Shown piece by piece: positions 24,781 to 34,137 of a stretch of DNA of 64,000 bases. The notes under the pieces were generated by a model, which was given only the letters and a program-made list of their open reading frames with translations, had not been told where the DNA came from and did not search any database. Both the position numbers and the translations under genes were made by a program. The stretch's first letter is position 1, and every line of letters starts with the position of its first letter. The stretch covers positions 2,329 to 66,328 of the forward strand of contig JAMOBD010000006.1 in assembly GCA_039908345.1 (NCBI GenBank). The letters run 5' to 3'. This stretch comes from Magnetospirillum sp. WYHS-4 (lineage in GTDB: Bacteria; Pseudomonadota; Alphaproteobacteria; Rhodospirillales; GLO-3).

Positions 24781-25016
24781 GCGCCTTCCCCGTGTCCGGC
24801 GTCGTCCGGACCCGCCATGTGGTTTCGCCTCCAAAAAAACCAACCGGTCGGGTTCTTTGCGTGACGTCTTGGCTGCATGTATATATCGTGTGAAAATGTT
24901 GTATACGCATACAACATATTGATTTCGTGTGCAGGTGCGAGCCTCGTTCGATTCGGTCGGTCGCGGGGGGCATGTTTTCCCTGGGAATTCTTCTGCGGCG
25001 GCGGCATTCTGGGGGC

Positions 25017-25481
25017 ATGAGTGAAACATCGGCTCCGCGCCTTGCCCAACTGGGCGCCAGGATCGACCTGCCGGCCTCGCCCGAGGCGGCGGTGCTGGAA
25101 TGCGTGCCCAATCCCCATCCCGGCGAAACCTATCTGGTGCGCTTCACGGCGCCTGAGTTCACCTCGCTCTGTCCCGTGACCGGACAACCGGATTTCGCCC
25201 ATCTGGTGCTGGACTACGTACCGGCCGGGAAGCTGGTGGAAAGCAAGTCGCTGAAGCTCTACCTGGGAAGCTTCCGCAACCACGGCGGCTTTCACGAGGA
25301 CTGCACCCTCGCCATCGCCAAGAAGGTCCGTGTGGCCGCGGGGCCGCTGTGGCTGCGCATCGGCGGCTACTGGTATCCGCGCGGCGGGATTCCCATCGAC
25401 GTGTTCTGGCAGTCGGGGCCGCCGCCCGCCGGGCTGTGGCTGCCCGACCAGGGCGTGCCGGGCTACCGGGGGCGCGGGTAA
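25017..25481 (+). CDS. queF: NADPH-dependent 7-cyano-7-deazaguanine reductase QueF (unimodular type)
   Basis: ORF 24927..25481 trimmed to MSETSAP. Motifs [13 protein letters not shown] and ESKSLKLYL. Confidence 0.9.
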
Positions 25482-25491
25482 GGGCGGGACC

Positions 25492-26232
25492 ATGTGGACC
25501 GACGCGGTCGACTTGCGGGACTTCTACGCCACCAGCCTGGGGCGGGTGGCGGGGCGGGTCATCGCCAACCAAGTGCGCCAGATATGGCCCGACGTCAAAG
25601 GGATGAACGTCCTGGGCCTGGGCTTCGCCACGCCCTTCCTCAACCCCTTCCGCAACGAGGCGGCGCGGCTGCTGGCGGCCATGCCGGCCCAGCAGGGCGT
25701 GCTGCCCTGGCCGACGGAGGGGCGCAACCTGACGACCCTTGTGGACGAAGCCGACCTGCCGTTTCCCGACCTGTCCATGGACCGGGTATTGCTCGTCCAC
25801 GGCCTGGAATGCGCCGAACCTCTGCGTCCCATGATGCGCGAGATCTGGCGGGTGCTGGCCGGCGGAGGCCGGCTATTGGTGGTGGTGCCCAACCGGCGCG
25901 GGCTCTGGGCCCGTTTCGAGCGCAGCCCATTCGGCCACGGCCGGCCCTATTCATCGGGCCAGCTTTCCCGCGCCTTGCGCGATTGCCTGTTCACCCCGGC
26001 CCAGTCCTACCCGGCATTGTTCGTCCCGCCCTTGCGCTCGCGCACGGTTCTGAGTACGGCCCGCGCATGGGAAACCCTGGGTCAGCGCTGGTTCCCGGCG
26101 TTCGGTGGGGTAGTGATGATCGAGGCCACCAAACAGATCTACGCCGGCCACCTCGCCACCCCCCTGCCCAAACGCGCCAAGGGCTACCTCCCTTTAGCGC
26201 AAAGACGCACGACACCGCAGGCGAGGGGGTAG
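25492..26232 (+). CDS. class I SAM-dependent methyltransferase
   Basis: 3' part of ORF 25330..26232 from MWTDAVDLRDFY. VLGLGFATP (motif I-like) and the DRVLLVHGLE...LAGGGRLLVVVPN pattern. Confidence 0.7.
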   Translation: MWTDAVDLRDFYATSLGRVAGRVIANQVRQIWPDVKGMNVLGLGFATPFLNPFRNEAARLLAAMPAQQGVLPWPTEGRNLTTLVDEADLPFPDLSMDRVLLVHGLECAEPLRPMMREIWRVLAGGGRLLVVVPNRRGLWARFERSPFGHGRPYSSGQLSRALRDCLFTPAQSYPALFVPPLRSRTVLSTARAWETLGQRWFPAFGGVVMIEATKQIYAGHLATPLPKRAKGYLPLAQRRTTPQARG

Positions 26233-26273
26233 GCGAGGCGATTCGTAATCAGCCGTTGATTGCTGATGACACA

Positions 26274-26279
26274 TATAAT
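26274..26279 (+). promoter_or_regulatory. candidate -10 hexamer (TATAAT) just outside the left inverted repeat
   Basis: Perfect TATAAT 55 nt upstream of ATG 26335. No well-spaced -35 found (TTGATT is only 12 nt away). Confidence 0.3.
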
Positions 26280-26313
26280 ATACCATGCGATGGAGTTTAG
26301 GGTATGTATGAAA

Positions 26314-26339
26314 GATAACTAAGAATTATCGAAGATGGA
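26314..26339. repeat. left copy of a perfect 26-bp inverted repeat (GATAACTAAGAATTATCGAAGATGGA)
   Basis: Exact reverse complement of 32005..32030. Contains the ATG (26335) of the STAND gene and an internal dyad GATAA-N7-TTATC. Confidence 0.95.
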
Positions 26340-29300
26340 AGGTCACATTTACAGTCCTCAGGACCTACTGGATATGCGGTGGGACCGTTTTGAGACGCTG
26401 GTCGTTGATACGATCCGTCAATTATACGGCCAATACCAGATTTCGACCGAGCAAACGTCGCTTAGCCATGATGGCGGCCGGGATGCAGAGTCCCATCATG
26501 TGCTGGCGATCGGACTTGGCGAAGACCTTTCTGTGAGCGTAAGAGTATTTCTCGAGGTAAAGAAAAGATCGACCGAAAATGTTGGCAAAGGTGATATTGG
26601 ATCTCATCTTATAGACGCCTTCGCCAACAAAGTAACGAAGATCATTTTCGTCACTAATAGTGATTTTTCAGAAAATTTACCTTTGTGGATTGGCGCGTTT
26701 TGCGCACCGCTTAATATTCAGTTCAGCTTGATTAATGGCGTACGCCTTATTAAACTGTTAAACAACGAGATTGGAAATCCACAGGTTCCAGATAGGACAG
26801 TCGATGATCAGATCATCGGCAAGGTAACCTTCTCGCTTTCTCCAACCGATGCGCTTCCGAGCAGCGCCAAATGCATGGTACGGCCTGATCGGCCAGTTTT
26901 TGCCATCATTGATGTCGCCATCGGTGAAGACGTGGCGCCGTTCTATGCCAAATTATCCATGAGGCTGATCGATGAGGACGCGGCCTCGATATTCGGCATA
27001 AATGACACGCAGTCACAGCCAATTCTCCTGTCTCCGGGCACACGCCGGCGCTGGGTTTTCGCCATTTGGCCTGGCCTGGCCGGACACTGGGACGGCTGTG
27101 ATTTCAACATCGACCAGGAAGGTTTCCCGAGCCCGTTACGGCTGTCGGTCATCAATTCCTTCCAGGTCTCTGAAATCGGCCTTCAGCCGATGATGGTCGG
27201 TGGTCAGAAGACCGCCTACAAGCAGATCCAATCCGCATTGAATACTTGGCGCAACACTGGTGGAAGCGCCCTTCGCATATTGCTTTCCCCCGGCGGTTTA
27301 GGCAAATCGTTTCTGATCGGATGCCTTAGGCGGGATATCCAGTCATGGGGTATCAGGACGTTGATGCTTGATGGGGAAGCCATCGAGTCGGATACGGCAC
27401 TGATAACGGCTAGCTTCACCACCTTGTTTCCGTTTGCACGCAACTCTTTCGAGCCGGGGCTGAAACCAGCCCTGCTCCGCTGGCTGGAATGCTTGGATCT
27501 GTCGCCGCAGCTACGCCGGCTCGTTGCCGATGATCTGTGTGATTCCGGCAGGTTACGGGCCGATAATTACAATCCGGCTATTCGGGCTCAATTATTGGCG
27601 GCCCTTCTCGCCGAGGCCGGAGCGGCACGGGGCCTGGTATTCATTTTCGAAGACCTTCACAAGGTTCCTCCCTCTGTTTTGTCCCTGCTGGCGGACACGC
27701 TGCGCCAACTCCGCTCGACCGGAATGGGCAACATCTTCCTTTTGCTGACATCGCGTCCGTTCTCTGACAGCGGCACCCACGATCTTGCTCGCGACTGGCT
27801 GCAGCGGCTTCAGAAAATCTCGGCGCTGGCCGAGGATGCGCTGCTGCATTTGCGCCCCCTTCAAGACGATGAAGCCCGGCAGCTTCTGCGCAGCACGGTG
27901 CCCACTCTGTCGGAGGCGCAGACTGAAAGCATTATCCAGCAAGTGGGAACATCGCCGTTCAATCTTCGAGAAGCGGTTCTTTATCTGAAGCTGTTGGGGC
28001 TTTTGGGATATGTCGGAACCGGGCAGACCCCGGTTCTTTTACGGCCGGACAAGTTAAACGCGCTGCTTGGTCATGACGGGTTGAAAACCACCACGCAGAA
28101 AAGACTGCAGGTGTTCTTTAAGAACCAACCCTCATGGCTGCAAAAGATGGTTGAGGCAGGCGCCTGTTATGGTCGTCAGTTTCCATTCCGGGAGACCGCC
28201 GCCGTCGCCCTCATGCCGGACAGCGAAGACGCACTGGACGCTTTGGATGAATGCGCTCGTTGGAGCATCGTCCTTCCGGTGCCTGGCTGCGCTGAGTTGA
28301 TCGAATTCGACCATGATCTGGTGCGCGCGGCCCTGCTGAGCGGATTGGCTCCGCACAAGCATCAAAGACTGGCCAGTGGATTGCTGGCCGAGCTGGAAGC
28401 TGACGCCGACGCTTTGCTGCTGTCGTCGCTTGCTTATCAGGCAGGCCAGGCGGAAAAGGCCTTCACCTTCGCCCGAACGGCTGCCAAGGCTGGCAGCGAA
28501 CGGGGGCGTCCTGCGGATGCATTGCGCGCCAACTACATTGCATTACTGACACTCGATCCGGCATGGGCGAGCCAGAATGAGGGGGATGACAGCTGGATTG
28601 ATCTCGCGATTCAGGTCGCAGCTCCGGCTCGCCGCGACTTCGACAATTGGCAGGCACGCGACCGTGAGGCGCTGGCAATCCTGCTGGATAATCTTCAAAG
28701 CCTGGGAAGCGTCTCGTCGGGAAGTGGACGATTGAGCGATGCCATCCTCAGCGAAGCGAGAATGGTCGCCGAACGGCTGCAAGACCATGGATGCATTGCC
28801 GCTCTCACGGCCATGCAGGGGCGAATGCTGTTCGAGCAAAATGACGTCGCCAAGGCCTTGGCTCACCATGAAGAGGCCGAGCGGATTTTCAACGAACAGG
28901 GGCTGATGCGAAATATTGAGCGTGCTGAAAATCTGATCCGATTGGCGATCTGCCTTCGACAGAACGGGCGCACGGAGGATTCCTTGAACGCCCTTGGCCA
29001 GGCAATCAGTCATCGGCCGAAAGCCGCCTGGTCACTGCTGAACAAGGTCCGCTCGAACCTGGGAGCCATTTATCTGCGATCAGACTGGACCGTCGTACGC
29101 TATCACTGGGAACGGCAGCTCCGCTCTGCCAGGGTCCACGGCCTGCTGTCGCGCCAGGCTCATGCCCTTGCCAGCCTATCCTTTATCAACCTGTTTGACG
29201 GGCGTTTAGCCGAAGGCCGCCGGCAGGCAGAGGAAAGTCTTCTGATCGCCCGCCGACACGAGATGGAAAACACCGCGCTGCGGTGTGATCTCAACCTTTC

Positions 29301-29748
29301 CGTTGCCTGGCTGATGGAGGGCAATGCCGAAGCGGCACTGCAATGCTTGGGCGAAGCGGAAGCCATTGCTTTGCGGCATAATGTCGGCCGCCGTCTCTGG
29401 CGGGTATATGCCAATCTCGCCACCACCTGGGAGATACTGGGTGATGACGCCAAGGCGGTCGCGCATGACATCCAGACACTGACCTGCCTGGATGCGACCA
29501 ATTGGGAAGCGGACAGGATTGCCCGTCATGGGCGCGAGCTTCTGCCATTGATCAATCTTGCGTCACGCACTCTGGCGAATCCAGACACTTATGGGGCTGC
29601 ATTGGCGCTGATGAATCCCGCATGCCGTGACGGGTTGCTTCTGCTGGCGCAAAACCTGGAAGATGGTCAGGCCACCGTCTTATCCCCCGTCAATCTGAAA
29701 TATCGTGTCCCGATCTATGGGCGTCACCGTTTCCTCATCACCGAATGA
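26335..29748 (+). CDS. STAND NTPase with an N-terminal Mrr/PD-(D/E)xK nuclease-like domain and C-terminal TPR-like repeats (Avs/AVAST-like)
   Basis: ORF 26335..29748. N-terminus has FETLVVDTIRQLYG, GGRD(50), LE(74)VK(76), IIFVTNSDFS and LINGVRLIKLL, which fits the Mrr_cat layout. Walker A SPGGLGKS (res ~318-325), Walker B LVFIFEDLH (~434-442), LLLTSRP. The C-terminal ~500 aa are helical repeats. Confidence 0.8.
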   Translation: MEGHIYSPQDLLDMRWDRFETLVVDTIRQLYGQYQISTEQTSLSHDGGRDAESHHVLAIGLGEDLSVSVRVFLEVKKRSTENVGKGDIGSHLIDAFANKVTKIIFVTNSDFSENLPLWIGAFCAPLNIQFSLINGVRLIKLLNNEIGNPQVPDRTVDDQIIGKVTFSLSPTDALPSSAKCMVRPDRPVFAIIDVAIGEDVAPFYAKLSMRLIDEDAASIFGINDTQSQPILLSPGTRRRWVFAIWPGLAGHWDGCDFNIDQEGFPSPLRLSVINSFQVSEIGLQPMMVGGQKTAYKQIQSALNTWRNTGGSALRILLSPGGLGKSFLIGCLRRDIQSWGIRTLMLDGEAIESDTALITASFTTLFPFARNSFEPGLKPALLRWLECLDLSPQLRRLVADDLCDSGRLRADNYNPAIRAQLLAALLAEAGAARGLVFIFEDLHKVPPSVLSLLADTLRQLRSTGMGNIFLLLTSRPFSDSGTHDLARDWLQRLQKISALAEDALLHLRPLQDDEARQLLRSTVPTLSEAQTESIIQQVGTSPFNLREAVLYLKLLGLLGYVGTGQTPVLLRPDKLNALLGHDGLKTTTQKRLQVFFKNQPSWLQKMVEAGACYGRQFPFRETAAVALMPDSEDALDALDECARWSIVLPVPGCAELIEFDHDLVRAALLSGLAPHKHQRLASGLLAELEADADALLLSSLAYQAGQAEKAFTFARTAAKAGSERGRPADALRANYIALLTLDPAWASQNEGDDSWIDLAIQVAAPARRDFDNWQARDREALAILLDNLQSLGSVSSGSGRLSDAILSEARMVAERLQDHGCIAALTAMQGRMLFEQNDVAKALAHHEEAERIFNEQGLMRNIERAENLIRLAICLRQNGRTEDSLNALGQAISHRPKAAWSLLNKVRSNLGAIYLRSDWTVVRYHWERQLRSARVHGLLSRQAHALASLSFINLFDGRLAEGRRQAEESLLIARRHEMENTALRCDLNLSVAWLMEGNAEAALQCLGEAEAIALRHNVGRRLWRVYANLATTWEILGDDAKAVAHDIQTLTCLDATNWEADRIARHGRELLPLINLASRTLANPDTYGAALALMNPACRDGLLLLAQNLEDGQATVLSPVNLKYRVPIYGRHRFLITE

Positions 29749-31465
29749 CGACTTTGCAGAAAGCCTCTTGGTAGCTGGCGAGCAGTTGCATATCCCATGA
29801 CCGGATACGCCAATCCCCGCGGGCAAACCGCCATTGAGCGTTGAACAAGGGAAAAATCGCCATCCACAGAGCGCCCAGGAACAGGTCCTCATCGCTTTTC
29901 GCCAATTCGGCCAAGCGGCAAAGCATGGCATAGGGGGATGGGGATGACTGGTGGGCATGCTGGTCGTGGAACCAATGCGCAAGATCGTGCGGCCCCGCAT
30001 AGAAACCGGCATGATCAAGATCGCAAACAGCCGGACTGCCATCAAGACGACGCATAAGATGTTCGCGTTTCATGCTGCCGTGCTGGAGACGCGGCAAGAC
30101 ACGCGACAATGGCCGACAATGGGCAAGAAAGCGCACAAGCCCCTTCGCGCGCAGGGCGAACTCGGGCGGAAACGACCACGCATCTCGCTTCAACGTTTCC
30201 TCAAGGCGGAATAATTCCACCTGCGGATGGCATTTGCGCAAGCGCAGCCGCCCCCCTTTTAAGCATTGAGCACTTAACTGTGCGGCTGCCCGGTCGAACT
30301 GCTGCACGGCTTCCTGCATATCGCTGGCCACCGACATGCCGTCCAGGGCGGACAGATAAGCCGTTGCCCCATCATCCTTCACCACGAACAGAGTCTGGAA
30401 CTGCCGGGAAGCGGCCATCATGAGTTCCTCAGCTACAGCCGGCTCGGCTTCATGATCTTCCAGCAGTTTCTCCTGGACCAGCAAACCTGCTTCCTCGTCC
30501 GCCGCGACAACACGTGGGGCAACCGGCACTGCCGTCAGAAGGCAAGCCATCTTCACCCGCTCCGGGGCGATGGGGGGGGCATCCATCTCAAGCGGGCTGG
30601 GCACCAGACAGGTCAAGGAGGGAGGGCGCTCTTGATGAATCTTGAGGAAGAATTCGCCTTTCTGCGATGAGATAAGGAAGCTGGGCGTCGGACTGGACGA
30701 GACATCTTTCCAGCTGTCGATCCGCCCTCCCAACAACCTCTCCACCAAAGGCCGGCGAGCCTCTATCAGGTTATCATTGATGGATAAGGTTGCCCCGGGA
30801 AGCGAGGGATCGCTGTTCGACGGCGCCAGAAGTTCCCCGTAAAGCCCGAGATAGCGTTCCGCCACCGCATCGAGTGAAAAACGATCCCGACTCCACAGCG
30901 CGGCGTTGTTTCCCATCCAGCGGCCCAAACGGTCGTTTCTGACAAACTGCGCCAGGGCGGCAGCAAGTCCTGGCGCATTCAGCCGATCCACCAAGTAACC
31001 GTTCACGTCATGGGCAATGATGTCCTGAAGCCCTCCCGTCCTGGTGGCGACCACGGGCGTTCCGCACATCATCGCCTCAACGGCGACCATTCCAAACTGT
31101 TCGCGCAAGGAGGGGAGACAGACGACGGTACTGCGGCTGTAGATTTCGGGCAGGGAATAACCATCGACCCGGCTCCATATCTCAAATCGGCCGGCTTCGA
31201 TGGCATGACGTATATTTTCCGTAGCACGCAGCAAGGTGTTCTCAAGATCGGCCGCCTCTTCTGCCGTTCCGCCGACAATGCGCACGCGGAATGGCGGAAG
31301 ATCCACCGATAGCAAAAGCTCCACCGCATCAATGAAAACAGCCAAGCCCTTACGGGAATCGACCAGTCGTCCGACGTATGAAATCGTCGGCACTTTCCGG
31401 GCGACGGCTAAATATCTGGGAGTCGATTCCATAGGGGATGATTGAAACTGATTGTGGTCTGACAT
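29738..31465 (-). CDS. GT4 glycosyltransferase C-terminal half fused to an APH/choline-kinase-like (protein-kinase-fold) domain; downstream fragment of a frameshifted gene
   Basis: ORF 29738..31465. YVGRLVDSRKG and SLREQFGMVAVEAMMCGTPVVATRTGG (GT1/GT4 C-domain). Then FFLKIH, LLVQEKLLE and HGSMKREHL...CDLDHAG (kinase-like, Asp of HGD replaced). Confidence 0.65.
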   Translation of the reverse strand: MSDHNQFQSSPMESTPRYLAVARKVPTISYVGRLVDSRKGLAVFIDAVELLLSVDLPPFRVRIVGGTAEEAADLENTLLRATENIRHAIEAGRFEIWSRVDGYSLPEIYSRSTVVCLPSLREQFGMVAVEAMMCGTPVVATRTGGLQDIIAHDVNGYLVDRLNAPGLAAALAQFVRNDRLGRWMGNNAALWSRDRFSLDAVAERYLGLYGELLAPSNSDPSLPGATLSINDNLIEARRPLVERLLGGRIDSWKDVSSSPTPSFLISSQKGEFFLKIHQERPPSLTCLVPSPLEMDAPPIAPERVKMACLLTAVPVAPRVVAADEEAGLLVQEKLLEDHEAEPAVAEELMMAASRQFQTLFVVKDDGATAYLSALDGMSVASDMQEAVQQFDRAAAQLSAQCLKGGRLRLRKCHPQVELFRLEETLKRDAWSFPPEFALRAKGLVRFLAHCRPLSRVLPRLQHGSMKREHLMRRLDGSPAVCDLDHAGFYAGPHDLAHWFHDQHAHQSSPSPYAMLCRLAELAKSDEDLFLGALWMAIFPLFNAQWRFARGDWRIRSWDMQLLASYQEAFCKVVIR

Positions 31466-32009
31466 CAGGATACAGCCTCTCTAACGCATCTTTCTCGTTA
31501 CGGCTCACGCATATGAGGGTGTCGGCCTCGTTGAAAACACGCCGCTCCCAAACATCCCTGACGCCATCGAAACAAGAGGCTTCCTCTCCCAGCTCGATGC
31601 GGGTCCGCCCCAGTGAAAGCAAGTGGTGGACATGGCGTCGAGCAATAACGGGGACCAGTCCGATGCCAACGGCACCAGACAGCCAGTTGCTGGTTTGAAC
31701 GATATCGAAGGTCTTCCCTGAAAGCAGACCGGCAAGCGCATCGGCAAGTTCGTCCCGCAAACTTCCCATTGAATGGTGGTCCATTTCCGTCGGGCTGCCC
31801 ACTTCCAGCCGATATAGACGGCAAAGGGGGCCTAGCTCCTGTATCCGCGGCTTACACGAGCTATTCAACCGAGTGACAATGGTCAGGTCATGGCCACGAC
31901 GCACGAATTGTCGAGATAGGTCGAAAAAGAAGGCATGTGAGCCCCCGAATCGCCCTGCGCCTGGTGGGTCGAAAGGGTCATCAGTAAGGGTAAGCAGCAA
32001 AATATCCAT
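31350..32009 (-). CDS. GT4 glycosyltransferase N-terminal half (upstream fragment of the same frameshifted gene)
   Basis: ORF 31350..32009. MDILLLTLTDDPFDPPGAGRFGGSHAFFFDLSRQFVRRGHDLTIVTR resembles MshA/SPS-type GT4 N-domains. Ends IIPYGIDSQIF, then leaves the frame that continues in ORF 29738..31465. Confidence 0.65.
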   Translation of the reverse strand: MDILLLTLTDDPFDPPGAGRFGGSHAFFFDLSRQFVRRGHDLTIVTRLNSSCKPRIQELGPLCRLYRLEVGSPTEMDHHSMGSLRDELADALAGLLSGKTFDIVQTSNWLSGAVGIGLVPVIARRHVHHLLSLGRTRIELGEEASCFDGVRDVWERRVFNEADTLICVSRNEKDALERLYPDVRPQSVSIIPYGIDSQIFSRRPESADDFIRRTTGRFP

Positions 32010-32030
32010 CTTCGATAATTCTTAGTTATC
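32005..32030. repeat. right copy of the perfect 26-bp inverted repeat
   Basis: TCCATCTTCGATAATTCTTAGTTATC is the reverse complement of 26314..26339. Contains the ATG of the GT gene (32009) and the GAT AAC TAA end of the recombinase gene. Confidence 0.95.
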
Positions 32031-32969
32031 ACTCCCCCCTCTCCTCCTCACGGCCCCCTCCATCACCTCGCGGAGGCTGGTGTCGCTGACGTGGGTGTAG
32101 ATTTCGGTGGTGGCCAGGTTGGCGTGGCCCAGGAGTTTCTGGACGAAGCGGATGTCCACTCCCGCCTCGATCAGGTGGGTGGCCGCGGTGTGGCGGAGCA
32201 TGTGGGGCGTGATGCGGCGGGTAAGGCCGGCGTCCTCGGCCGCGCGGCGCAGCAGGATGCGCACCGTCTGCGGCGTGGCGGTGGCGCCGCCGGAGGTGAG
32301 GAACAGGCGCTCGCCCAAGGGGCCCGTGGCCGGGCGTGCGGCCACATAGGCCCGCAGCAGGCGCCGGGTGGGTTCCTCCACCAGAAATGCCCGGCGCTCG
32401 CGGTTGCCCTTGCCGATGATCCGGATGGTGCCGTCCTCCAGGTCGATGTCGCTCAGATGCAGTGCCGTCAATTCCCCCACCCGCATTCCGGTCGCGTAGA
32501 GCATCTCCACGGCCAGCCAGGCGGTCAGGCGTTCGAATCCGCCGGGCGAAAGGCGGGCCGGCCGGCCGGGAGGAGGAAGGGGCAGACGCAGCGTCCGGAA
32601 CAGGGCCGCCATCTCGCCACGCGTCAGCCCGCGCGGCAGCCGGCGGGGCAGGCGGACCTGAAGGTCCAGGCGGTGGAAAGGGCTGGCCGGAATCTCGTCC
32701 TCCAACTCCAACCAGCGGTACATGGCCTTCAGGCAGGCGATACGGCGCTTGGCGCTGGCCGGCTTGAGGCCGCGCCGGTCTTGCAGATGTTCCAGATAAC
32801 CGCGCAGATGCTCGCGGTCGCAAGCCGCCAATGGCCGGTCGGGCCCCGCGTAGGCCCGGTATTCCTCCAGGTCCTGGGCGTAGGCCCGTAGCGTGTTGGC
32901 CGACAGGCCCTTGGCCACGCGGCAATGGCGCAGGAAGGCCGCGCAGGCCTCCGCCACCGTCTCTGTCAT
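32022..32969 (-). CDS. XerC/XerD-family tyrosine site-specific recombinase
   Basis: ORF 32022..32969. SAM-like N-domain plus catalytic landmarks ATGMRVGEL (R), KGNRER (K), HMLRHTAATH (HxxR) and LGHANLATTEIYTH (H, Y). Confidence 0.9.
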   Translation of the reverse strand: MTETVAEACAAFLRHCRVAKGLSANTLRAYAQDLEEYRAYAGPDRPLAACDREHLRGYLEHLQDRRGLKPASAKRRIACLKAMYRWLELEDEIPASPFHRLDLQVRLPRRLPRGLTRGEMAALFRTLRLPLPPPGRPARLSPGGFERLTAWLAVEMLYATGMRVGELTALHLSDIDLEDGTIRIIGKGNRERRAFLVEEPTRRLLRAYVAARPATGPLGERLFLTSGGATATPQTVRILLRRAAEDAGLTRRITPHMLRHTAATHLIEAGVDIRFVQKLLGHANLATTEIYTHVSDTSLREVMEGAVRRRGGSDN

Positions 32970-33138
32970 CGGTCCCCCCCCTCAAGGAGTTTTGGGAGAC
33001 GCTACACCATTCGCGGGAGGAATGTTACCTATGTGCAAGTGAATTTGCGCGGGCCTCGGCAAGAGCCACGGGCGCCCGGACCGGTGGGCGGAGGTATGGA
33101 AGGCCAGGGGGCCGGCGAGGCAACCATGGCGGCCCGCC

Positions 33139-34137
33139 TTGGCGTTTCCCGGCGGAGCCCGTGGCATGCTATGGTGGGCCATGCGCCTCCTTCTCGTTCT
33201 TGGTTTCCTGGGCCTGACCCTTCCCGCGCTCGCCGAGCCGATTGCCGTCGACGCCGAGGCGATTCCTCTCGATCCCCGCGATCCGGCGGTGACGACGGTC
33301 GGGGCGCTCCATTACCGGGGCGGCCTGGTCCTGAGGGCTCCCGGTCGGAAATTCGGCGGTCTTTCCGATTTGACGGTGAGCCTCGACGGGCGCGACCTGA
33401 CCGCCATCTCCGATGCCGGACGGCGCCTGTCGCTAGGGCTACGTTACGACGTGACCGGCCGGCTGACGGGAATCGGCGAGGCCGATCTGTCGCCCTTGCC
33501 GGGGCTCGACGGGCGGCCGTTGCGCGACGACAAAAAGGAGGGCGACGCGGAAGGGCTGGCTCCGGCGCCCGACGGCGGTTTCGTCGTTTCCTTCGAGCAT
33601 CGCCACCGGCTCTGGCACTATCCGGCCGGTTGGGAGACGCCGCGCGAATTGATTCCGCCCCGCGAACTGGCCCTGGCACCGCGCAACAGCGGCATCGAAG
33701 CCCTGGCGCGCCTGGCGGACGGCCGTCTGTTGGCCCTGACCGAAAGTTTCATGACCCAACGCGGCGTGGTCGGCTGGGTCGGCAACGAGGAAACCGGCGA
33801 CTGGGCGACCCTGACCTACGAGACCGTGGGGGCTTTCTATCCCACCGGCGCCACGGTCCTGCCCAACGGCGATGTCCTCGTACTGGAACGCCGCTATACC
33901 TTGATCGGCGGGCCGGCGGCGCGCCTGGTCCGCGTCGGCCGCACCGCCTTCCAGCCGGGGATCAGCATCAAGGGCGACGAAGTGGCACTCCTGGCCCCGC
34001 CGCTTGCGGTCGACAACATGGAAGGACTTGCCATGCGCCGGACCCCGGCGGGCGGGGTTCTGCTCTATCTGCTCTCCGACGACAATTTCCAGGGTTCGCA
34101 ACGGACCCTGCTTCTGCTTTTCGAATACCGTCCATAG
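33139..34137 (+). CDS. secreted esterase-like/phytase-like family protein
   Basis: ORF 33139..34137. Signal peptide MRLLLVLGFLGLTLPALA, plus GGLSDL, EGLA and LSDDNF motifs. True start probably ATG 33166 or 33181. Confidence 0.65.
   Translation: MAFPGGARGMLWWAMRLLLVLGFLGLTLPALAEPIAVDAEAIPLDPRDPAVTTVGALHYRGGLVLRAPGRKFGGLSDLTVSLDGRDLTAISDAGRRLSLGLRYDVTGRLTGIGEADLSPLPGLDGRPLRDDKKEGDAEGLAPAPDGGFVVSFEHRHRLWHYPAGWETPRELIPPRELALAPRNSGIEALARLADGRLLALTESFMTQRGVVGWVGNEETGDWATLTYETVGAFYPTGATVLPNGDVLVLERRYTLIGGPAARLVRVGRTAFQPGISIKGDEVALLAPPLAVDNMEGLAMRRTPAGGVLLYLLSDDNFQGSQRTLLLLFEYRP

Follow-up and report, generated by a model that had tools for sequence, protein, structure and literature searches.

A tyrosine recombinase gene in the 64,000-nucleotide stretch of DNA analysed here (the window) ends inside one of two inverted copies of a 26-bp repeat, and a 16-bp core of that repeat recurs at the end of homologous recombinase genes in several phyla. 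From the comparison of these loci we consider it highly probable that the core is the recombination site of a dedicated recombinase, distinct from XerC and XerD, that inverts the 5.7-kb cassette enclosed by the two copies. We also favour, with clearly less assurance, the view that this inversion is currently active in this genome. A local repeat thereby becomes a defined recombination site with a predicted arm, centre and arm layout that is directly testable.

The inverted repeat, its cassette and the adjoining recombinase

The 26-mer GATAACTAAGAATTATCGAAGATGGA, on the plus strand at 26314-26339, is the exact reverse complement of positions 32005-32030 (26 of 26 bases), giving two inverted copies 5.7 kb apart. 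This pair was the sole perfect long inverted repeat found between 25000 and 40000; with up to three mismatches allowed the whole window holds two copies and no more, and two were never obtained in 100 shuffles of the window. Read from the outer end, both copies carry GATAA (positions 1-5), CTAAGAA (6-12) and TTATC (13-17), exactly as the first-pass annotation had described them, and positions 22-24 form the ATG of the inward gene at each end (26335 on the plus strand, 32009 on the minus strand). The same annotation had the repeat supplying the last 9 nt of the recombinase gene, and the codons GAT AAC TAA, at 32030-32022, do coincide with repeat positions 1-9. A 5-bp dyad with a spacer of 3-9 nt is matched by 4.8 % of shuffles of the 26-mer (p about 0.05); the dyad anatomy is marginal on its own and gains significance from the comparative data. 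A metagenome scan with the exact 26-mer returned no match. The coordinates of the repeat copies and of the genes around them are collected in Table 1.

Table 1. The repeat copies, the cassette genes and their immediate flanks in the window
Feature	Position	Strand	Description
AT-rich non-coding stretch	26233..26313		41 % GC; follows the methyltransferase gene and directly adjoins the distal site
Distal repeat copy	26314..26339	+	16-bp core 26314-26329; GATAA 26314-26318, CTAAGAA 26319-26325, TTATC 26326-26330; STAND-gene ATG 26335-26337
1137-aa protein, distal end of cassette	26335..29748	+	Mrr-type nuclease, AAA_16 (STAND-type) NTPase and TPR domains
Glycosyltransferase C-terminal continuation, 575 aa, other frame	29738..31465	-	GT1 / GT4-conflict domain and about 350 uncharacterised residues
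Glycosyltransferase N-terminal half, 219 aa, proximal end	31350..32009	-	GT4 N domain; ATG 12 nt past the recombinase stop
Recombinase-proximal repeat copy	32005..32030	-	16-bp core 32030-32015; recombinase stop TAA 32024-32022; proximal gene ATG 32009-32007
Xer-like tyrosine recombinase, 315 aa	32022..32969	-	Phage_integrase and SAM-like N domain; below XerC/XerD cut-offs

The cassette has a GC content of about 57 %, compared with about 69 % in the flanks. Its two genes, for the STAND protein and the glycosyltransferase, are convergent and their 3' ends overlap by 11 nt. The glycosyltransferase is split into two halves that overlap by 116 nt, an apparent frameshift, and given this lesion the copy of the cassette in the window may be decaying. 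In the current orientation it is the frameshifted glycosyltransferase that lies on the recombinase side. A domain search found no transposase domain in the cassette, and the outer flanks of the repeats (...tgaaa and actcc...) have no direct repeat in common; a transposon with terminal inverted repeats was rejected on the grounds that both target-site duplication and transposase are missing. PADLOC matched none of the four proteins encoded by the recombinase gene and the cassette. In the only other genome of the same family, G001, the left flank is conserved and there is no recombinase at that place.

The 315-aa protein has the catalytic residues and the SAM-like N-terminal core-binding domain that define the tyrosine recombinase superfamily. 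It is of the two-domain type, with matches to PF00589 (5.5e-41) and PF02899 (6.8e-16), and residues R163, K187, H256, R259, H282 and Y291 are invariant in an alignment with 18 homologues. Its best solved relative is XerD (1a0p, 2.7e-36). We nevertheless rejected an identity as XerC or XerD: the protein scores 222.8 on the XerC model TIGR02224 (cut-off 335.15) and 220.3 on the XerD model TIGR02225 (cut-off 329.6), and a tree separates its family from the XerC and XerD of this genome with support of 100/99. A separate XerD is encoded on contig C148 (344.7 bits against the cut-off of 329.6) and a XerC-like gene on C40 (score 307 on a range shortened at the N-terminus), so the recombinase beside the cassette is an extra, dedicated paralogue. 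A plasmid search with this recombinase gave one distant match only.

The 16-bp core across homologous loci

To place the site in a wider context, we scanned one genome per species with an alignment of the recombinase, which yielded 80 loci whose recombinases are 33-54 % identical. In 45 of the 80 loci the 3' end of the recombinase gene carries the 16-bp core GATAACTARGAATTAT, which is part of the 26-mer, with a few mismatches at most; the count includes two loci whose contig ends inside a variant site or 1 nt after it. These loci belong to at least eight phyla, with examples in Pseudomonadota (alpha, beta and gamma), Myxococcota, Actinomycetota, Chloroflexota, Vulcanimicrobiota, Verrucomicrobiota, Binatota and Bacillota. 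One 16-bp sequence has thus stayed almost unchanged while the recombinase diverged to about 35 % identity. Within the order to which the window belongs, 8 of 401 genomes contain GATAACTARGAATTAT, either as an inverted pair or at the end of a contig, while the reversed control pattern is present in one. Almost all site-bearing recombinases fall in one well-supported subclade of the tree, and the site-less members are scattered among them in a pattern as from repeated loss. A full-text search of the literature for the site sequence, together with concept searches, found no description of the site or of the recombinase family.

We tabulated 47 recombinase-proximal sites to obtain a conservation profile. 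Core positions 2-5 (ATAA), 13, 14 and 16 are invariant, positions 6, 7, 12 and 15 have one exception each, position 11 is A or G, and positions 8, 9 and 10 are the most variable (1.07, 0.73 and 1.29 bits); conservation inside the 16-mer is inflated because the sites were gathered by their likeness to the core. The edges of the profile are free of this bias, as is the identity between partner sites described below, and conservation falls to at most 0.5 bits at position -1 and 0.65 bits at +17. The axis of the dyad, in which position i pairs with 18-i, is position 9, the most variable base, and the arms read ATAACT and, on the opposite strand, ATAATT.

The profile agrees in part with the arm, crossover and arm anatomy that had been proposed from the window alone. 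Two near-invariant arms do surround a variable centre in the 47 sites. The proposed arms of 5 bp did not stand: G1 is present in 42 of the 47 sites and C17 in 22 only, which places the outermost G/C pair outside the conserved dyad and leaves ATAA/TTAT. The notation that fits the site best is (G)ATAA-CTNNNRR-TTAT, or three free bases between ATAAYT arms. At the distal copy, where it ends no gene, the outer half GATAAC shows the same degree of conservation, which argues for a role at the level of DNA rather than a coding or translational one.

At the proximal site the core also ends the recombinase reading frame. The recombinase stop lies inside the core in 33 of the 47 sites, in three registers: a TAA at core positions 3-5 (18 sites), a TAG or TAA at positions 7-9 (11 sites, the window among them) and a TGA formed with positions 1-2 (4 sites). 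In the remaining sites the stop is mostly 4-23 nt upstream of the core. The tails past the catalytic domain vary in length and sequence, and several homologues 50-55 % identical to the recombinase of the window also end in ...DN; on their contigs the stop lies within GATAACTAGGAATTAT or GATAACTAAGAATTAT and an inverted copy follows 2.7-3.8 kb downstream. Given three stop registers and variable tails, the ...DN ending is one of three frame run-ins and not a conserved peptide. The suspicion that the 3' end of the recombinase gene had been shaped by the junction is hence supported, in the form of a family-wide design in which the core closes the gene.

Both partner sites could be read on a single contig in 23 cases (22 loci and the window). 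The partners are always inverted and lie 1.5-5 kb apart, with 5.7 kb for the pair of the window, and they are identical at core positions 2-16 in all 23 pairs, every variant of the centre included. Of the 23 pairs, 12 depart from the commonest core GATAACTAGGAATTAT, mostly in the centre, TGGG, TGCG, TAGT, TACTG, TGAGG and ACTCA being examples; TAAG, TAAGG and C6T are further variants common to both partners. A mismatch at position 1 is seen in a single pair. Beyond the core the identity between partners is short and erratic, reaching 0-16 nt inward and usually 0-7 nt outward. Conserved arms and an identical overlap region are what recombining partner sites require, and the pairs match this requirement. 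The arrangement expected of an inversion switch, in which a recombinase gene adjoins a segment bounded by identical inverted sites, is found in the window and recurs throughout the pairs.

The cassettes of relatives consist of two convergent reading frames that usually fill nearly the whole segment. Each gene begins 15-41 nt inward of the outermost (first) core base, and at many loci the ATG is formed by core positions 15-16 and a G at 17. The variable centre is purine-rich (AGGA, AAGA, GAGGA) and would be placed as a ribosome-binding site for starts at +19 to +22.

Three close relatives have no cassette and keep only the left half-site: GATAACTAG(G) in L018, GATAACTGC in L049 and AACTAG in L093. 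L018 is a syntenic orthologue, 76 % identical, whose protein ends 7 residues sooner, at a TGA of its own that lies 5 nt ahead of the half-site; a comparison of orthologous C-termini, proposed with the first-pass annotation, therefore shows the cassette-less form ending sooner. L049 is nearly identical to L051, and L093 is sister to L079. In all three cases the similarity stops inside core positions 8-10, which places the historical junction in the variable centre, as expected of a crossover region.

Signs of inversion and competing explanations

Several observations in relatives bear on whether the cassettes flip. A protein of about 825 aa with an AAA_16 domain adjoins the recombinase in L052 and L084, while its partner, an ATP-grasp protein of about 350 aa, adjoins it in L075, L079 and L095; L079 and L084, whose recombinases are 67 % identical, thus have the AAA_16 gene at different cassette ends. 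L022 and L061 likewise differ in the orientation of a second gene pair. Assemblies also tend to break at the repeat. A contig ends inside the site or within 130 nt past it in 15 of the 45 site-bearing loci, compared with none of the 31 others (Fisher p = 2e-4), and 8 of these 15 ends are within 20 nt of the core. Of seven independent contigs that carry the protein P0014, from several samples and assemblers, six end at an identical position, 9 nt downstream of the stop codon; a metagenome scan for the P0014 junction found no contig other than one that was known before.

Two isolates, Ralstonia sp. A12 and Burkholderia sp. WAC0059, and a Magnetovibrio MAG each have the locus divided over three contigs, one with the recombinase flank, one with the distal flank and one with the cassette (3.4-3.5 kb), the four ends overlapping only by a repeat of 18-23 bp. 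Such a repeat should be too short to break an assembly unless reads support both joins. A fold-back contig from a Conexibacteraceae MAG runs from the distal flank through the cassette to the same flank again, with one flank joined to both ends of the cassette. Taken together, the orientation, contig-end, split-assembly and fold-back data are indirect, mutually independent and agreeing signs that point to mixed orientations. They are in line with the inversion, rather than excision, that had been predicted for the window, as are the constant inversion and identity of the partners. The assembly of the window itself has one orientation, is contiguous through both repeats and includes no contig with the alternative junction.

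We propose that two monomers of the adjacent recombinase, the presumed catalyst, bind the near-symmetrical arms ATAA(C/T)T and that strand exchange takes place across the asymmetric centre, parsed as the 7-bp CTAAGAA. Tyrosine recombinases cleave the two strands with a stagger of 6-8 bp, which the 7-bp parse fits, so that cleavage would be placed at the edges of this segment. As the copies are inverted, recombination would flip the 5.7-kb segment without excising it, and as the repeat is identical on both sides, the reading frame of the recombinase would be left unaltered. The core in addition carries stops in all three frames, a purine-rich centre resembling a ribosome-binding site and often the AT of the next ATG, which would make the cassette gene that faces the recombinase its operon partner a few bases behind (12 nt past the stop in the window). 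With each flip the STAND nuclease-NTPase and the glycosyltransferase would trade places, one coming to lie by the recombinase and the other by the methyltransferase.

The effect on expression is the weakest step of this model. Because the two genes converge without a gap, transcription from the stronger side may run antisense through the gene of the other side. In 20 of the 23 loci the 80 nt outside the distal site have a lower GC content than the flank farther out (0.48 versus 0.62), which fits a non-coding and possibly promoter-bearing stretch, and in the window transcription into the distal cassette end may start in the AT-rich stretch before the distal repeat. A scan of 25900-33300 for sigma-70 promoters found no consensus on either side of the cassette. 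The gene outside the distal site reads in at 12 loci, away at 5 and is ambiguous at 6, by a crude ORF/GC3 call that gives p of about 0.06 after two calls were corrected by eye. This mixed direction and the missing promoter consensus are what make the step weak.

One alternative is that the inverted sites are scars of cassette capture or swapping by double crossover between the resident locus and an arriving cassette bounded by the same inverted sites, akin to engineered recombinase-mediated cassette exchange (RMCE), and that the segment in the window is a fossil that has ceased to invert. Cassette content does differ widely between related recombinases, cassette GC is often foreign to the host (0.39 versus 0.70 in Azospirillum L054, 0.40 versus 0.62 in Methylobacterium L068, 0.57 versus 0.71 in the window), and the closest orthologue has no cassette; the frameshift in the glycosyltransferase and the contiguity of the window through both repeats would fit a fossil as well. 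We nevertheless regard this alternative as improbable, because the repeat in the window is still perfect over 26 bp and because the breaks and fold-back contigs in relatives indicate ongoing inversion. A recent transfer of cassettes across phyla was rejected for the recurrent gene families: cassette proteins are no more alike than the recombinases they accompany, and leave no sign of such an event. Exchange and inversion are moreover compatible with each other.

Inversion by the adjacent recombinase also has to be weighed against explanations in which that protein plays no part. If the sites were targets of the host XerC/XerD, as in the pdif modules of Acinetobacter, the neighbouring recombinase would be incidental. 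The inner ATAA and TTAT do resemble the inner arm ends of dif, which reads CATAA-N6-TTATG in E. coli, and the genome encodes the XerD and XerC-like proteins mentioned above. That host enzymes are responsible is nonetheless very improbable in view of a site fused to the stop of this one recombinase family in 33 of 47 cases and within 23 nt of it in nearly all others, across at least eight phyla; the centre is also of 7 bp instead of 6, the outer arm bases are not conserved, and the best dif-like sequence of the genome lies elsewhere, on C72, and is different. We give equally little credence to a repeat that involves no site-specific recombination, being a shared translation-initiation or operator sequence, or the terminal inverted repeat of a non-autonomous transposon. 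The ribosome-binding-like centre, the starts in or just after the core and a palindrome that could bind a dimeric regulator are features that such a sequence might have, but it would leave the conservation of GATAAC at a distal copy that ends no gene, the breaking of contigs at the repeat and the strict linkage of the site to one recombinase family to be accounted for.

Implications and comparison with known systems

If flipping and its coupling to expression are both real, these loci would provide compact stochastic control, on/off or either/or, of whole immune-type genes (STAND NTPases and partner enzymes), and possibly a route for swapping such cassettes. It is conceivable, although we hold this broader reading only tentatively and think it rather unlikely, that they form an undescribed platform spanning phyla, in which a near-universal 16-bp site serves as stop, ribosome-binding site and start context, and promoterless two-gene 'conflict' cassettes are flipped and also exchanged between genomes by double crossover. 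A typical cassette would then pair a STAND NTPase with a small-molecule-modifying enzyme, each flip alternating the gene that is operon-coupled to the recombinase. Such a platform would correspond, in nature, to recombinase-mediated cassette exchange and would give immune genes a second way of being shuffled, similar to that of integrons. A systematic screen for inversions required repeats of at least 22 bp with one of them inside a coding sequence (PMC9881135). Most members of the present family would be missed under this length requirement.

The closest system in logic is that of the Mycoplasma vpma, vsp and vsa loci, where the gene of a Xer-like recombinase (Xer1, Mbr or HvsR) adjoins the locus, the recombination sites are placed in the 5' leaders of entire genes and inversion determines which gene comes to stand behind the external expression signals (PMC2268961). 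Both have an adjacent Xer-like recombinase and sites just upstream of start codons. The loci described here differ in having two sites and one convergent gene pair in place of a multigene family, in encoding cytoplasmic 'conflict'-type enzymes and STAND NTPases where the Mycoplasma loci encode surface lipoproteins, and in a 16-bp core that overlaps the recombinase's own stop and is conserved across phyla.

The G segment of phage Mu and the C segment of P1 have convergent alternative genes between short inverted repeats, with an adjacent external invertase and expression from outside, and the cassettes share with them the convergent genes, the short inverted repeats and a recombinase gene outside the segment. 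The invertases Gin and Cin belong to the serine recombinases and depend on an enhancer and Fis, and inversion in Mu exchanges the C-terminal portion of a single protein; in the present loci the recombinase is of the tyrosine type and whole genes with their own start codons would be exchanged.

Sites of the dif and pdif type are 28 bp long, with a 6-bp centre between 11-bp arms, and are acted on by the host XerC/XerD; pdif modules are plasmid-borne, with inversely oriented sites. The present sites resemble them in the succession of arm, short centre and arm, in ATAA and TTAT at the inner arm ends and in delimiting discrete modules, and differ in a dedicated single recombinase fused to the site, the 7-bp centre and the absence of anything conserved beyond 16 bp. 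Classification of the repeat as a dif-type site, of which there is one per replicon with the dimensions just given, was rejected, there being two inverted copies 5.7 kb apart.

As in integrons (IntI with attI and attC), a tyrosine recombinase is fixed beside a primary site that holds variable, promoterless foreign cassettes, whose expression would come from the platform. Here the repeats are identical, double-stranded and inverted where integrons have attC hairpins, and there is one two-gene cassette and no array. An integron was rejected, with the recombinase scoring 126.1 on the integron-integrase model TIGR02249 (cut-off 265) and the cassette flanked by identical inverted repeats of 16-26 bp.

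Inversion by a tyrosine recombinase is also known from the R64 shufflon (Rci) and from fimS (FimB and FimE), where only one arm and the centre are conserved between sites. In the shufflon it is C-terminal exons of pilV that are rearranged, and the fimS segment contains a promoter, whereas in the loci described here complete convergent genes would flip and the site overlaps the recombinase stop, neither of which is true of those systems. On the reading favoured here the system is of a known kind, that of the tyrosine-recombinase inversion switches; what is new is the 16-bp core, its overlap with the stop codon in three registers, the covariation of the centre between partners, the half-sites of cassette-less relatives and the evidence from assembly breaks.

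Solo core and leftover half-site

A solo full core, GATAATTAGGAATTATC, a C6T variant, is found in genome G000. There is no recombinase gene beside it, and the ~24 nt ahead of it are similar to the window recombinase gene at its G-rich 3' tail (GCCGTGGAAGGAGAGGGGGGATGC vs GCCGTGAGGAGGAGAGGGGGGAGT). This solo core looks like what is left of a second locus. Because its centre differs from that of the window sites, recombination between this core and the window sites should not be expected.

The cassette-less syntenic orthologue (L018) carries a near-perfect palindrome, with arms of 48 nt that are 96% complementary, placed exactly at the CTAG of its leftover half-site GATAACTAG; a second CTAG follows the palindrome. 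The arrangement has the look of a short palindrome that inserted at a CTAG/TA target.

Coordinates of the features discussed
Feature	Locus or contig	Positions	Remark
Solo full core	G000 contig C119	6281-6321	L003:1477-1517
Palindrome	L018	10938-11043	106 bp; JGI 3300048839
Glycosyltransferase frame overlap	window	31350-31465	116 nt
queF and class-I methyltransferase neighbourhood	window	24927-26232	flanks distal repeat
Methyltransferase, queA, tgt, queF	L022	6240-9681	5' side of homologous recombinase
Recombinase-plus-cassette locus	L063, Hyphomicrobium contig JBAZYB010000001.1	10902-12616	
Inverted sites with identical flanks	G404 contig C12	105650-111742	L128, L133
Example cassette	L052	10914-14467	
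Example cassette	L066	3620-8600	
Example cassette	L090	10962-14896	

Repeated flanks, contig ends and a split gene

On G404 contig C12 the 28-nt outer flanks are identical at both inverted sites and the contig stops 40 nt further. This is a fold-back assembly in which a single flank has been joined to both cassette ends. The contig end at L028 (G391, contig C30) terminates 17 nt beyond the core in AGATCGGAAG, which is the start of the Illumina adapter; this is adapter contamination at a contig end coinciding with the repeat.

The Hyphomicrobium contig holds two recombinase-plus-cassette loci, L063 and L065, ~23 kb apart, whose centres differ (TGGG and TGCG). In the distal flank of L063 the final 95 nt of its recombinase gene recur in inverted orientation; either the gene end may truly have been duplicated and inverted, or the assembly may have folded back. 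In the window, the GT4 glycosyltransferase gene, now placed behind the recombinase, has its N- and C-terminal halves in separate, overlapping frames. The split is a frameshift, caused either by real decay or by an assembly error.

Cassette cargo and the queuosine neighbourhood

In the L041-L118 cassettes an AAA_16 (STAND-type) NTPase, 790-1100 aa long, is partnered with a small-molecule enzyme (ATP-grasp / D-Ala-D-Ala-ligase-like, carbamoyltransferase or GT4-conflict). Cargo of the smaller cassettes includes methyltransferase, CDP-alcohol phosphatidyltransferase, PAP2, a YbaK-like editing domain and pentapeptide-repeat proteins. A PADLOC scan covering only the window's four proteins matched none of them (0/4).

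The queF and methyltransferase neighbourhood flanking the distal repeat of the window also adjoins the homologous recombinase of L022, and this comparison hints at an old linkage between this recombinase and the queuosine gene cluster.
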